The position numbers and the translations under genes are program-made. The notes under the pieces are model-generated. The model was not told the DNA's origin. It was given only the letters and a program-made list of their open reading frames with translations, and did not search any database. Of a DNA stretch of 42,932 nucleotides, positions 3,062 through 42,932 are shown piece after piece (within the stretch, counting starts at the first letter, position 1; each line of letters opens with the position of its first letter). The DNA is from an uncultured bacterium (GTDB lineage: Bacteria > Bacillota > Clostridia > Oscillospirales > Acutalibacteraceae). The stretch is taken from positions 1 to 42,932 of the forward strand of contig CASFDQ010000130.1 in the NCBI GenBank assembly GCA_949293385.1, in the 5' to 3' direction.

Positions 3062-4576
<1,515 letters not shown>

Positions 4577-10357: not shown

Positions 10358-11110
10358 CTATGCCATTGTTTTAAGCATTTCTAACGTCACTTCATATCGG
10401 CAGGGTCTGTTTTGGATAAGCTTTTCGTATTCTTCTTTCATATATTCGCCCATTCGGCGTACTTCATTGCCTGAGCTTCCTGCGATATGAGGCGTGAGAA
10501 TGCAGTTTGGCAGAGTGTAAAACTCGCTGTCGCTTTCGGGCGGCTCGGGGAGGGTCACATCAAGCAGAGCCGTAAGGTCGGGGCGCGCTTTCAGTACCTT
10601 TATCAGATCTGCTTCTACAACCTGTGCCCCACGTCCCGTGTTGATAAAGGTGGCGTTAGTAAGCATCGTTTCAAACAGCCTGCCGTCTAACATCCCTTTG
10701 GTCTGCTCGTTATTGGCAAGGTGATTGGATACCACCTGACATTCCTTGAAAAGCGTTTCAAGGCCGACCTTTTTAACTCCAAGCGCAGCGGCTTTTTCAT
10801 CCGGCAAAAACGGGTCAAAGACCAGCACCTCAAGATTATAGCTTTTAAGCATATTTATGACCAGTTTGCCGATCATTCCCGCTCCGATGATTCCGATCTT
10901 CACATCATAGTTTCCGGGATATGAGTGGAAGCATTGCGAAGCGGCTTTGCGGTCACCCGTTTTTGCAAGGCGGCTGCTTCTGAAAAAAGCCCTTGTTGGC
11001 TAAAACTATCTGCGCCACGGTATATTCGGCAACGGGTACGGCATTGGCCGCCCATGCGGAAAAGCCTTATAATACGGCAGTATTACTGCATTTTTCATCT
11101 TCGCTTTTGG
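10358..11110 (-). pseudogene. D-isomer-specific 2-hydroxyacid dehydrogenase, frameshifted and 5'-degraded
   Basis: The intact 181-aa ORF covers only the NAD-binding and C-terminal part (KIGIIGAGMIGK...TPHIAGS). Upstream, the expected catalytic-domain segment GFSAWAANAVPVAEYTVAQIVLANKGFF is readable in another frame (about 10960..11050). It is preceded by an in-frame stop and followed by a TGA. Confidence 0.75.
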
Positions 11111-11310
11111 AAACAAAGTTACACCTACAAAACTGCTACGCACCCGAAAATGGATGATTTTTATGTAAGAAAAGGCAAAAAACCACGGTAACGCTGACGC
11201 GTCGTTAGTGAAGTTTTTGTTTTAGCATAGAATAATATATCGGGTTAGAACCAGCATCGCATTTGTATGTACAAATACAGTTGGGCAGTAGCCCAAACCC
11301 ACTAACAACA

Positions 11311-11353
11311 GAAAAGAGAAGATTCGTTTTTGCAACGAGTCTTCTCTTTTTTT
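11311..11353. terminator. Strong stem-loop with flanking A/T runs (bidirectional terminator-like)
   Basis: gaaaagagaagattcg / cgagtcttctcttttt (one mismatch) followed by TTTTTTT and preceded by an A-rich run. Confidence 0.6.
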
Positions 11354-11362
11354 GCCTGTTAA

Positions 11363-11607
11363 GTGATATGCTGACTAAAGTCAGCGTGATATTTTCTTTT
11401 GAAAATTCCTCGTCTATAGAGAGATATTTCCAAAAGAAAGTGATATTAAACCCTACGGGTTTAGTGATATTCTATTCGCCCGTAAACTTGCGAAGCAAAT
11501 AACACTCGACTGAAAGTCGAATATCACTGCGCAGCAATATAACTCGCCGTTAGGCGAATAGAGCTGCAGAAATGTTCGCTAAGAACATTTCTACTAACCC
11601 GTTCGGG
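11363..11607. repeat. Mini-hairpin array B with iterated GTGATAT motif
   Basis: GTGATAT occurs at 11363, 11386, 11440 and 11464, with an inverted ATATCAC at 11521. The motif copies bracket unrelated hairpins: gctgac/taaa/gtcagc, tttcttttg...caaaagaaa and taaaccc/tac/gggttta. Further hairpins are tcgac/tgaaa/gtcga, tcgcc/gtta/ggcga, gaaatgttc/gctaa/gaacatttc and ccc/gttc/ggg. Confidence 0.8.
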
Positions 11608-17141: not shown

Positions 17142-17774
17142 ATGGAAAACTTATCCGCCTTTTTATCCGAGGTTATCAGGCCTTCCGAGATAACCACCCC
17201 TACCGAGCCCTATTTTGACGTTACGAAGCACGGCGTTGTCGGCGACGGGGTCACCAATAATACGAAAGCCATAAACGAGCTTATAAAGTCGGTTTCCGGG
17301 GGAATAATATTCTTCCCTCCCGGTCGCTATCTTACGGGAACCATAATGCTTAAAAGCAATATGACCCTTTATTTGACCAGCGGCGCCGACTGCAAGGATA
17401 TGGAGCTTTTCGATTTCGGTCCCCGTCCTCTTGCCGACGATACCCCCGTTATGGAGGACATCTCCATAAATAACGTGATGGTCCGAAGGGCTACCGTCGC
17501 CGCAATGTATATTTTCGGCATACCCGAGCGTCCGATTAAAAACCTCCGTGTTCATAACTTCTCGGTCGAAAGCGTTATAGACCCCGCTATAAGACGGGAG
17601 CCGGTTATGATGCCCACCTTCGAAAAAATGCAGGGTAAGGGAATAATAATTAAAAACGTTTCCGATTCGGTCTTCTCCGAGATTTTAGTCACTACCGAAA
17701 ACGTGCCCCTCGAGTACGAAAACCTCGAAAACGTCACCTTCAACGGCAAAACCCTTGCGGCTGTGCCGCAGTGA
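17142..17774 (+). CDS. Pectate-lyase-superfamily / GH28-like protein, short form (probable internally deleted remnant)
   Basis: The N-terminus FDVTKHGVVGDGVTNNTKAINELIK...IIFFPPGRYLTGTIML is the Pectate_lyase_3/GH28 entry motif. The protein is only 210 aa, and I cannot find the central catalytic coils (NTDG, DD, HG, RIK-type motifs). The stop codon TGA (17772..17774) lies inside the first GTGATAT repeat. Confidence 0.6.
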   Translation: MENLSAFLSEVIRPSEITTPTEPYFDVTKHGVVGDGVTNNTKAINELIKSVSGGIIFFPPGRYLTGTIMLKSNMTLYLTSGADCKDMELFDFGPRPLADDTPVMEDISINNVMVRRATVAAMYIFGIPERPIKNLRVHNFSVESVIDPAIRREPVMMPTFEKMQGKGIIIKNVSDSVFSEILVTTENVPLEYENLENVTFNGKTLAAVPQ

Positions 17775-18139
17775 TATTCGCCTTCGGCGAGTGATATAGG
17801 GCTTTGCCCTGTGATATTTTTCCTTCGGAAAAGTGATATATTTTGCCTTTGGCAAAATGTTAACGTGTCTCCGACGGATCATATACGGCTTCGCACGAAA
17901 TATATTATACATCTTCCGGTCGGAAAACGATGTTGCCTTACGGCAAATGATGTTATGCTTCGCATAAACGATGTTGCGACTATCGTCGCAAACGAAATTT
18001 TTCCGTAGCGGTGGAGGGATAGTGCTCCCTCGTGAGATATTGCAAATTAGAATAAATTTCTACGGAGAGCGTAGGGGAGGGGCTTGCTCCTCCCGTGAGA
18101 TATTGCAAATTAAAATAAATCTTTTCGGCTACGAAAAAA
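17771..18139. repeat. Mini-hairpin array D: GTGATAT x4, AAAYGATGTT x3, 63-nt tandem duplication
   Basis: GTGATAT at 17771, 17791, 17811 and 17833, each followed by a different 5-8 bp hairpin with a TTC/TTT loop. GATGTT at 17929, 17949 and 17970, each followed by a hairpin. CGTGAGATATTGCAAATTA occurs at 18031 and 18094. The segment 17921..18015 is 92/95 identical to 26070..26164. Confidence 0.85.
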
Positions 18140-25725: not shown

Positions 25726-25777
25726 AAAGGACCCTCCATAAATTTGATTTTGGAACGTTTTACGCTCCGCGACTTTC

Positions 25778-25806
25778 ATTCTAACACACTTTGTATAATA
25801 TTTCAA
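25778..25806 (-). promoter_or_regulatory. SigA-type promoter of pyrP-upp
   Basis: On the minus strand: TTGAAA, 17 nt spacer, TAGAAT. Confidence 0.55.
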
Positions 25807-25857
25807 ACCTAATTTAACAAATTTTTTCAAAATCCGACAAAAAATCTGAAACGCCCG

Positions 25858-26189
25858 CCGTAATTCGGTTGTGCACAGTGAATTACGGCGAGCGTAGGAG
25901 GCTCTGTTCCCCGCGTTTTAAACTTAAATGCTTATAAGAGAAAAACGGCTACGATGCTCGGCCATCTCCGGTGGGAGAAGGGGGACCACGACCCGTAGGG
26001 TCGTATTTCCGCCCGCAGGGAGGAACACCGTTTTGCGCCAAAGGCGCAAATATCGTTTTCGTTTGCGGACGGAAAACGATGTTGCCTTACGGCAAATGAT
26101 GTTATGCTTCGCATAAATGATGTTGCGACTGTCGTCGCAAACGAAACTTTTCCGTAGCGGTGGATGAGGCATATCGTAGCCGAGTTTTT
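25858..26189. repeat. Mini-hairpin array F, closed by a long-range helix
   Basis: Contains at least 9 hairpins, including ccgtaattc...gaattacgg, ctcc/ggtg/ggag, acgaccc/gta/gggtcgt, ttgcgcc/aaa/ggcgcaa and cgttttc...gaaaacg. It includes the 95-nt block shared with array D. The 10-bp helix cggctacgat (25946..25955) / atcgtagccg (26173..26182) is flanked by AAAAA and TTTTT. Confidence 0.85.
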
Positions 26190-26259
26190 ATATACTTATT
26201 TCGTCTATGAGTCTGAGCTCTTCTTGGGTAAATACCGTATTTTCGGCTGCCTTGTACAT
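26188..26259 (-). CDS. Candidate 23-aa small ORF (MYKAAENTVFTQEELRLIDEISI)
   Basis: AAAGGAGG lies 6 nt upstream of the ATG at 26259. The stop TAA (26188..26190) is 5 nt before the closing helix of array F. No homology can be asserted. Confidence 0.3.
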   Translation of the reverse strand: MYKAAENTVFTQEELRLIDEISI

Positions 26260-26350
26260 ATTCTTCCTCCTTTAAGGTCGTGTTTTTAATACATCATACT
26301 ATACAACCTTTCCTTCGAAAAGGATTTTATTTGAAGAAATAATATTGCAG

Positions 26351-26379
26351 TTGAAAAACAAGCGGTTTTATAGTATAAT
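26351..26379 (+). promoter_or_regulatory. SigA-type promoter of ymdB
   Basis: TTGAAA, 17 nt spacer, TATAAT (consensus -10). Confidence 0.65.
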
Positions 26380-26409
26380 AAAATTAACATTGTAAACGGT
26401 GGTGCAAAC

Positions 26410-27192
26410 TTGAAGATACTTGCCGTAGGCGACGTATGCTCTGAGGGCGGAACGGAATTTCTCCTTAAAACCCTTCCTAAAATAAAAAAAGAATACGGTA
26501 TCGACTTTACGGTGGTAAACGGAGAAAATTCCTCGGTCTCAAACGCGATCTCTGCCGACTCTGCCGCCCTTATTTATGCGGCGGGAGCCGACGTTATAAC
26601 CGGCGGTAATCATACCCTTCACCGAAAGGATTTCCGTCCACTTCTCGATAGCGACGACACCCTGCTTCGTCCCGATAATATGCCTAAGGCCGAATTCGGG
26701 AAGGGCTACTGCCTCTATGATATGGGGCATACTAAGATAGCGGTCATAAACCTGCTGGGTCAGACCTACCTAGAGCTTCACGAAGCCGAAAACCCCTTTA
26801 CCTGCGCCGACCGGCTTATCGAAAGGGCCGAAAACGACGGCGCCGATCTCATACTTCTGGATTTTCACGCCGAGGCCACCAGCGAAAAGGTCGCAATGGG
26901 ACTCTATCTTGACGGAAGGGTCACGGCGGTATTCGGAACGCATACCCACGTTCAAACCTCCGACTGCAGGGTTCTGAAAAACGGAACGGCCTATATGACC
27001 GATCTGGGTATGACGGGCCCCGAGGACGGCGTTCTCGGCGTAAAAGCCGAAATTATTATCGACCGTTTTAAAAACGGCGGTACGGGACGCTTTACTCACG
27101 CCGAAGGAAACTGCGTCCTCGAGGGAATGATAATAGAGGCCGACAAAAACAGCGGAAAAGCAATTTCGGCTACGGCCGTTCGTATTAAATAA
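26410..27192 (+). CDS. ymdB: YmdB-family metallophosphoesterase (2',3'-cyclic-nucleotide phosphodiesterase)
   Basis: Motifs GDV...VVNGENS...GGNH...DFHAEATSEK...GTHTH. TTG start. Confidence 0.88.
   Translation: MKILAVGDVCSEGGTEFLLKTLPKIKKEYGIDFTVVNGENSSVSNAISADSAALIYAAGADVITGGNHTLHRKDFRPLLDSDDTLLRPDNMPKAEFGKGYCLYDMGHTKIAVINLLGQTYLELHEAENPFTCADRLIERAENDGADLILLDFHAEATSEKVAMGLYLDGRVTAVFGTHTHVQTSDCRVLKNGTAYMTDLGMTGPEDGVLGVKAEIIIDRFKNGGTGRFTHAEGNCVLEGMIIEADKNSGKAISATAVRIK

Positions 27193-42855: not shown

Positions 42856-42932
<77 letters not shown>

Follow-up and report, generated by a model that had tools for sequence, protein, structure and literature searches.

Tandem hairpin repeats apparently nested in the terminator loop of a decayed aldo-keto reductase gene in an uncultured member of the Acutalibacteraceae

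REP/BIME elements have a conserved palindromic unit of ~35 nt and a RAYT transposase in the genome. The attC sites of integrons are defined by R''/L''-L'/R' core sites with GTTRRRY and by an adjacent tyrosine integrase, and a CRISPR array consists of 23-50-nt repeats, non-palindromic spacers of similar length and cas genes. The intervening sequences (IVSs) of 23S rRNA are extra DNA in the terminal loop of an existing hairpin, and some of them encode PF05635 proteins. PF05635 is homologous to Avd, the accessory protein of diversity-generating retroelements (DGRs) (PMC10053308). The Gut-1 motif (RF01706) is curated in Rfam as an sRNA; its 2010 description names no function and no genomic host and treats the motif as a free-standing sRNA (PMC2864571). 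A search of the literature on tandem-hairpin repeats in Clostridia found nothing relevant.

A hairpin array was analysed at about 26 kb of the window, by which is meant the whole 42,932-nt stretch of DNA under study (the 43-kb window). Like Gut-1, this array contains at least three short hairpins with a repeated linker, but the linker is AAYGAUGUU as opposed to GUGAAAU, and the Gut-1 model (gathering score, 50 bits) did not match 25750-26420, even with the cutoff relaxed to E ≤ 10. Along the minus strand a 23-codon ORF (26259-26188) comes first, followed by the array, the promoter of pyrP and then pyrP (PF00860) and upp (PF14681), the identities of these two genes being supported by Pfam; ymdB is divergent, on the plus strand. 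The site comprises the following features, in which AKR stands for aldo-keto reductase and the insert layers are those proposed below.

25778..25806, minus strand: pyrP-upp promoter (TTGAAA, 17 nt, TGnTAGAAT)
25852..25894, minus strand: second intrinsic terminator (15-bp hairpin and U-run), lying immediately before the pyrP promoter
25946..25955: AKR terminator stem, left arm cggctacgat; the minus-strand U-run after it is the complement of 25936-25945
25956..25987: putative layer-1 insert, left part (32 nt), also in L125, absent from L120 and L121
25965-25978: hairpin tctcc/ggtg/ggaga within the left part of layer 1
25988..26156: putative layer-2 insert (169 nt), delimited by alignment against L125
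25988-26004: hairpin acgaccc/gta/gggtcgt
26032-26050: hairpin tttgcgcc/aaa/ggcgcaaa
26070..26164, plus strand: 95-nt block, a closing helix and three hairpins
26157..26172: putative layer-1 insert, right part gcggtggatgaggcat (16 nt), of which the first 8 nt are GCGGTGGA
26173..26182: AKR terminator stem, right arm atcgtagccg, pairing with 25946-55
26188..26259, minus strand: 23-codon ORF, a putative AKR gene remnant by comparison with the full-length protein of L120

The initial annotation had described a multi-hairpin array closed by a terminator-type helix and lying, on the minus strand, downstream of the 23-codon ORF and upstream of the pyrP promoter, and this anatomy was borne out. The hairpins that it named exist, including those at 25988-26004 and 26032-26050, and the 10-bp helix 25946-55/26173-82, flanked by A5 and T5, encloses 217 nt, close to the 215 nt estimated. 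By definition an intrinsic terminator has a GC-rich stem, a loop of only 3-8 nt and a U-run behind it; the outer helix, with a 'loop' of 217 nt, was not called by the terminator scan. The terminator hairpin at 25852-25894 is conserved in L121 and L125, and its single plus-strand C·A pair is a G·U pair on the minus strand. No promoter belonging to the array was detected at the 26-kb site by a promoter scan. A plus-strand promoter considered by eye at 25792-25799 was dropped, as its TG is immediately adjacent to TATAAT and a −35 element is lacking.

Contigs of relatives were retrieved via the proteins that flank the array. The YmdB protein was 98% (L120) or 94% (L121) identical to that of the window, and the pyrP identity of L125 was 97%. 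A gene for a 329-aa AKR is intact in all three of these relatives; the L120 protein starts with MYKAAD… and terminates in …ATENTVFTEEELRLIDEISI. The ORF of the window encodes MYKAAENTVFTQEELRLIDEISI, which is MYKAA joined to ENTVFTQEELRLIDEISI. As these are the first 5 and the last 18 codons of the AKR gene, fused in frame, the ORF appears to be an in-frame deletion remnant of this gene rather than a small gene, and it should not be called a gene in annotation. In L120 and L121 the same 10-bp helix is present directly after the AKR stop codon, with a 7-nt loop, flanking A/T runs and the U-run of an intrinsic terminator; that of L121 carries a compensatory pair (cggctacgGt/aCcgtagccg). Because the relatives have this plain hairpin, the giant multi-branched terminator of the initial annotation is best read as an ordinary AKR terminator with foreign sequence in its loop. 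It is accordingly very improbable that the site is a dedicated giant terminator and 3'UTR of a genuine 23-codon small-protein gene. The strong SD before the ORF, the A and U runs flanking the outer helix and the placement of the array between the ORF and the pyrP promoter speak for such a gene, but the ORF looks like the two ends of a deleted AKR gene, 5' and 3', joined together, relatives carry the helix as a simple terminator and the content of the loop varies between strains. Hence, of the proposal that the array forms the 3'UTR of a small transcript, the position stands, but the ORF seems to be an AKR remnant and the orientation of the 95-nt block is reversed at its other site at 17.9 kb. 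Transcription of the minus strand would make the array only the 3' tail of the transcript of a dead gene, which would stop either at the split terminator or at the one that follows it (25852-25894).

The terminator loops of the four strains form a nested series: L120 and L121 have 7 nt, L125 has 54 nt and the window has 217 nt. The 54-nt loop of L125 reads gctcggccttctccggtgggagaagggggacc–GCTTTT–gcggtggatgaggcat and includes a hairpin, accgc/tttt/gcggt. In the window the outer 32 and 16 nt are the same, and the GCTTTT is replaced by 169 nt (25988-26156) at the position of the loop of the L125 hairpin; every step of the 7-, 54- and 217-nt series falls inside the loop of a hairpin. When L120 and L121 are taken as outgroups, parsimony would favour a simple loop first, then +54 nt, then +169 nt, so that the change was probably one of gain and not of loss, as judged over only four strains. 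The 169-nt insert is a mosaic of the hairpin at 25988-26004, a module of inverted units (R-unit module, 26022-26069) and then most of the 95-nt block. A homologue of the R-unit module is present in L121 outside the terminator. The last 8 nt of the block, GCGGTGGA, are also found in L125, which lacks the block, and at 18008-18015 in the 17.9-kb copy, and the right junction is therefore an 8-nt microhomology. A comparison of the filled (window) and empty (L125) sites showed no target-site duplication.

Loop insertion was seen a second time at the 17.9-kb array, where the hairpin ggggagggg/ctt/gctcctccc (window 18075-18097) carries an extra 63 nt in L120, consisting of small hairpins (L120 1727-1814 against window 18071-18096). 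In a relative of the gene upstream of this array (88% identity), no array follows the stop codon. Modules have been shuffled between strains and between loci, and the 26-kb feature appears from these alignments to be a strain-specific nested repeat insertion in a terminator loop behind a decayed gene.

Two further arrays are present in the window, one of them holding the second copy of the block.

11363..11562: third array, GTGATAT units followed by inverted ATATCAC units, directly after the terminator at 11310-11353
17769..17844, plus strand: Gut-1 RNA motif (RF01706) with GUGAUAU linkers, 65.1 bits against a gathering score of 50
17921..18015, plus strand: paralogous copy of the 95-nt block, in a 400-nt array between convergent genes

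The two copies of the block (17921-18015 and 26070-26164) are identical at 92 of 95 positions and have unrelated flanks. The three differences, at 17969/26118 (C/T), 17982/26131 (A/G) and 17998/26147 (T/C), are those given in the initial annotation, as is the alignment of the copies. A repeat search lengthened the match to 102 nt at 95% identity, and the two arrays also have tacggNgagcgtagg and cggctacga in common, in differing order. The block is closed by a 7-bp helix, CGGAAAA (26070-76)/TTTTCCG (26148-54), and contains hairpins at 26082-95, 26102-16 and 26123-40, with stems of 5, 6 and 7 bp, loops of 4, 3 and 4 nt and linkers AAAACGATGTT, AAATGATGTT and AAAYGATGTT. An inverted linker lies opposite a forward linker in the pairing of ATCGTTTTC (26052-60) with GAAAACGAT (26072-80). 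These data indicated that the block is a recent intragenomic copy between the 26-kb site and the 17.9-kb array.

The initial annotation held that substitutions avoid the stems. All three do miss them, but this is not significant (P = 0.23 for 36 stem nt of 95; P = 0.10 when the closing helix is included). A metagenome scan with a fixed-length pattern, in which linkers were fixed and stems free, gave 0 matches to further copies of the block; no diverged copies of the exact block were thus obtained, and the stem/loop comparison therefore rests on three differences. Relative to local transcription the block is sense to the upstream gene at 17.9 kb and antisense at 26 kb, which argues against a strand-specific function in the 3'UTR.

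The Gut-1 match in the 17.9-kb array lies 80 nt upstream of the block copy, within one intergenic array. Several minor features of this array were observed. The first GTGATAT linker (17769-17777) in the Gut-1 array includes the stop codon (TGA) of a pectate-lyase-like gene (17142-17774); since each linker contains a TGA and the unit length is not a multiple of 3, stops occur in all three frames. A 35-nt direct repeat, cgtgagatattgcaaatta[g/a]aataaat…, is present at 18031-18065 and 18094-18128, in each case after a G-rich hairpin; it is a further module type of this array, and a related module lies beside the AKR terminator in L120. A search for homologues of the 210-aa gene upstream of the array returned the gene itself and one fragment only. 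One short-read metagenome contig (L002) ends inside the array, at about 17880 of the window.

On each strand the 251-261-nt region at 26 kb folded far better than shuffled sequences, both as RNA (z = −5.6 for the plus strand and −6.8 for the minus strand) and as DNA (z = −7.1 and −7.9). Predicted energies show no clear strand preference; across 42 arrays the two strands were favoured in a ratio of 28:14 and differed by a mean of only 2.3 kcal/mol, on a total of about 90. Pairing in the unit hairpins was almost exclusively of the Watson-Crick type, a strict count of distinct unit hairpins giving 1282 Watson-Crick pairs and 1 G·T, as compared with 1968 Watson-Crick, 30 G·T and 18 A·C pairs in terminator-like hairpins of the same loci (Fisher P = 7e-6). 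With a laxer unit definition, 154 of 243 units were perfect, and most mismatches paired two pyrimidines (G·T, 4; A·C, 14). G·U pairs are scarce partly through a bias of detection, since a hairpin with a mismatched 5-6-bp stem is harder to call, and the pairing count is therefore supportive only. Loops on the GATGTT strand are TTC, TGC, TAC, TGAC and TTGC and those on the other strand GAA, GCA, GTA, GTCA and GCAA; inverted units bear inverted loops, so that neither strand is favoured overall.

Long-range helices change in a compensatory manner between genomes, for instance TcTATTCGCC/GGCGAATAgA in the window corresponding to TaTATTCGCC/GGCGAATAtA in L034 and L042, and CATTTGTG/CACAAATG corresponding to CATTTATG/CATAAATG. 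For canonical elements, a selected folded form, of either single-stranded DNA or RNA, is possible. Tandem duplication of units is visible in L004, L072 and L098. Construction of a covariance model of the three-hairpin domain was abandoned, as MAFFT lost the register of the unequal-length hairpins and RNAalifold paired the linkers together.

These properties bear on whether the array acts as RNA. A functional Gut-1-like RNA would be a 3'UTR module or sRNA that offers single-stranded UGAUG(U) linkers to an RNA-binding protein, as a sponge or scaffold, or, alternatively, a structure that blocks 3' exonucleases and stabilises the transcript. The curation of Gut-1 as an sRNA and the true Gut-1 match in the sister array are in line with this, as are the strong folding z-scores, the covariation in a long-range helix and the conservation of linkers while stems vary with pairing retained; moreover, at both window sites the block is bracketed by a stop codon and a terminator and so would be transcribed. 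We nevertheless judge such an RNA to be unlikely, given that the block is opposite in sense to transcription at its two sites and is absent from the 26-kb site in the 97%-related strain L125, that G·U pairs are essentially absent, that a forward/inverted array gives Gut-1 matches on either strand, that canonical copies, described below, follow a strong terminator and precede a promoter, and that a promoter of its own was not detected for the 26-kb array. The near restriction of the stems to Watson-Crick pairs, the symmetry of the strands, the opposite orientations and the canonical position therefore favour maintenance at the DNA level. Two features would match repeats of this kind, namely the tandem duplication noted above and a correction of palindromes by template switching, the latter being a proposal of our own.

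The wider family was sought in the GTDB species genomes (596 Gb) with the pattern GATGTT-N7-18-AAYGATGTT-N7-18-AAYGATGTT, for which we estimate about 2.5 matches by chance. Arrays were assigned to the family if they had at least three AAYGATGTT linkers, spaced 7-18 nt apart, and if each spacer was a perfect palindrome of at least 4 bp; the 95-nt block is such an array. The pattern was found at more than 117 GTDB loci, and 77 of 116 among the matches listed were true hairpin arrays, nearly all of them in MAGs of gut or rumen Clostridia (Oscillospiraceae, Acutalibacteraceae, Ruminococcus, Faecousia and others). Over 77 gut Clostridia genomes share this grammar of a linker followed by a variable perfect palindrome. 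A phage origin was considered and rejected, as 1 of 75 pattern matches in viral contigs was a hairpin array. In 18 loci no Rfam 15 family covered the GATGTT arrays; Gut-1 and tRNAs were the only families detected. Many family members sit at contig ends. As arrays break short-read assemblies, copy number is underestimated.

In complete elements several units of one orientation are succeeded by several that are inverted, and hence the linkers of the two halves are complementary. The linker variants observed in such matching halves were GATGTT/AACATC, GAAGTT/AACTTC, GTGAAAT/ATTTCAC and GTGATAT/ATATCAC. Within arrays the linkers are conserved and the palindromes differ from unit to unit, with pairing kept; across distant genomes both linkers and long-range helices are conserved with compensatory changes. 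The third array of the window is built in this way. Its long-range 10-bp helix (11471-80/11553-62) covaries with those of L034, L042 and L087, and it gave Gut-1 matches below threshold on both strands (42.9 bits on the minus strand and 18.9 bits on the plus strand). Gut-1 resembles the GATGTT arrays in having tandem short hairpins, variable stems and a conserved 7-10-nt linker containing UGA, and both come from gut Clostridia and metagenomes. The arrays are a large and mostly undescribed repeat family of gut Clostridia that is related to Gut-1.

A tRNA gene, of many types, was located within 400 nt of 25 of the 77 listed arrays, at a typical distance of 44-63 nt, the span of a single terminator. 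A gene for a PF05635 protein ("23S rRNA intervening sequence protein") was present within 500 nt of 16 of the 77. Conversely, among 60 metagenomic loci of PF05635 relatives, at least 31 had a GATGTT-type array upstream, other loci had arrays with other linker variants, and 39 had an upstream tRNA gene of varied identity on the same strand. The canonical layout consists of a tRNA gene, a terminator, a forward/inverted array of ~250 nt, a near-consensus promoter and the PF05635 gene; it was seen in L084, L079, L051, L108, L073, L045, L067, L013 and others, and in L206-L285. Both Gut-1-type and GATGTT-type arrays occur in this forward-plus-inverted form after tRNA terminators and upstream of PF05635 genes, and the linker variant (GATGTT, GAAGTT or GTGAAAT) differs among PF05635 subgroups. 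The conserved linkers and helices with compensation, together with the fixed canonical position, suggest that the family, or at least its canonical members, are selected for function, which speaks against the passenger interpretation given below.

A further arrangement was found in L034 (3100-7950), in which at least six small genes on one strand, mostly unannotatable, are separated by a conserved spacer of ~330 nt. This spacer comprises a 3' flank, gaaaaccgaggattttc, a terminator, a GATGTT- or GTGATAT-type array and a conserved promoter/SD that includes the anti-SD-like GCGGTGGA. The organisation of these cassettes is integron-like. No recombinase was found in the 8 kb of L034 or in the other loci examined, and the cassette-boundary motifs of L034 are absent from the window.

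This context raises the question of a functional site at the DNA level, by which the arrays, folded as single strands or cruciforms, might serve as recombination or binding sites of an attC/BIME-like kind, or mark cassette boundaries, and might be recognised by the PF05635 proteins (Avd-like four-helix bundles) encoded next to canonical copies. The association with PF05635 and tRNA genes in both directions of search (16 and 25 of the 77 listed arrays; at least 31 and 39 of the 60 PF05635 loci) would fit such a site, as would the other linker variants preceding other PF05635 homologues, the at least six small genes of L034 parted by a terminator, an array and a conserved promoter/SD, the Watson-Crick-only stems and the loops of GNA/GNNA type on one strand. 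For the 26-kb array we consider such a role quite unlikely, since a recombinase was not found in the loci examined, the 43-kb window has no PF05635 gene and the window arrays adjoin ordinary metabolic genes.

A broader proposal can be made from the same associations. The hairpin 'ladders', including Gut-1, might be a new class of structured DNA element of gut Clostridia that, much as IVSs do, inserts in or beside hairpins belonging to RNA genes or terminators and is functionally tied to the PF05635 proteins encoded directly downstream of canonical copies, for instance as a binding, landing or recombination site for small cassettes behind tRNA genes, with the arrays of the window being dispersed solo fragments. 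We offer this as a speculation that is unlikely as it stands.

As with REP/BIME, SMAG and BOX elements, the arrays are short extragenic palindromes that form mosaic clusters in both orientations near terminators, lie between genes, vary between strains and have modules in common at distant loci. In REP/BIME, however, the palindrome is conserved and the linkers vary, whereas in the GATGTT arrays the linker is conserved and the palindromes differ; the host lineages, Enterobacteria and Clostridia, are also different, and no RAYT/Y1 or other transposase of the kind that accompanies REP/BIME was found in the 43-kb window. The array resembles a 23S rRNA IVS in being extra, self-folding DNA in the terminal loop of an existing hairpin whose helix persists, and PF05635 is associated with both, but the host hairpin of an IVS is an rRNA helix and not the terminator of a protein gene, and the copy in the window has no ORF. 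Integron attC sites are similar in that structure is conserved over sequence and, with regard to L034, in that imperfect inverted repeats lie between small cassettes of the same orientation; they differ in forming one long bulged hairpin rather than several, the arrays appear to lack R/L core sites, the L034-type cassettes have their own promoters, and no integrase was found in the window or in L034.

Other classes were examined and rejected. The array is not a MITE, there being no terminal inverted repeat or target-site duplication, and the window differs from L125 in that GCTTTT is replaced and has an 8-nt microhomology at one junction. It is not a CRISPR array, as the unit is 20-24 nt, with a constant part of 9-10 nt and a palindromic variable part, and there are no cas genes nearby. 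A tRNA-like element was dismissed, the only Rfam tRNA in the window being at 42856-42929; the topology of the block is a four-way junction, but with linkers of 5-7 nt and loops of 3-4 nt. A C/D box or K-turn, suggested by the resemblance of AUGAUGU to box C, was dropped by eye, as inverted and forward linkers are fully complementary, and so were type III antitoxin repeats, as the units are not identical.

Taken together, these comparisons make it reasonably probable that the array is a DNA-level, REP/BIME-like repeat that plays a passenger role at the 26-kb locus and is tolerated in the terminator loop. The module consists of an AAYGATGTT linker followed by a variable, nearly perfect palindrome of 4-8 bp, three such units and the 7-bp helix making up the block, and non-coding modular palindromic repeats of this type would have been built up in two nested steps inside the AKR terminator loop. 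The block would have been copied recently between the 26-kb site and the 17.9-kb array, with one junction in the 8-nt microhomology. Modules may spread as DNA, by tandem duplication and by ectopic copy-choice or microhomology-mediated recombination among hairpin-rich intergenic regions; neither a mobilising enzyme nor target-site duplications or terminal inverted repeats were found for the arrays. They would survive in terminator loops because their self-folding keeps both terminator arms together, and a function specific to this locus is probably absent.

If this passenger interpretation is correct, the curated Gut-1 sRNA family covers only a single linker variant, and only half of the element, within a much larger set of arrays of forward and inverted hairpins. 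The arrays of this set would resemble genomic repeats of the REP/BIME type more closely than they do one RNA gene, which would alter how covariation in such motifs is read. The nesting of repeats in terminator loops would likewise be a simple route for the growth of intergenic regions and 3'UTRs. Of all these findings, the link of the family to tRNA terminators and PF05635 genes most deserves further study. It would provide a testable handle on the role of PF05635 proteins outside DGRs.

Two other observations were made in the window. The ORF at 10358-10903 matches the NAD-binding domain of 2-hydroxyacid dehydrogenases in its C-terminal part alone and is followed by ~400 nt of non-coding DNA (10358-11320 in all); it is probably another decayed gene. 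The 8-mer CGGCTACG occurs nine times on the plus strand, at 3220, 4672, 5344, 6979, 7150, 7414, 18126, 25946 and 27167, against about 0.7 expected; as most of these sites are in coding sequence, the excess is probably due to codon usage (GGC-TAC) and not to a repeat.
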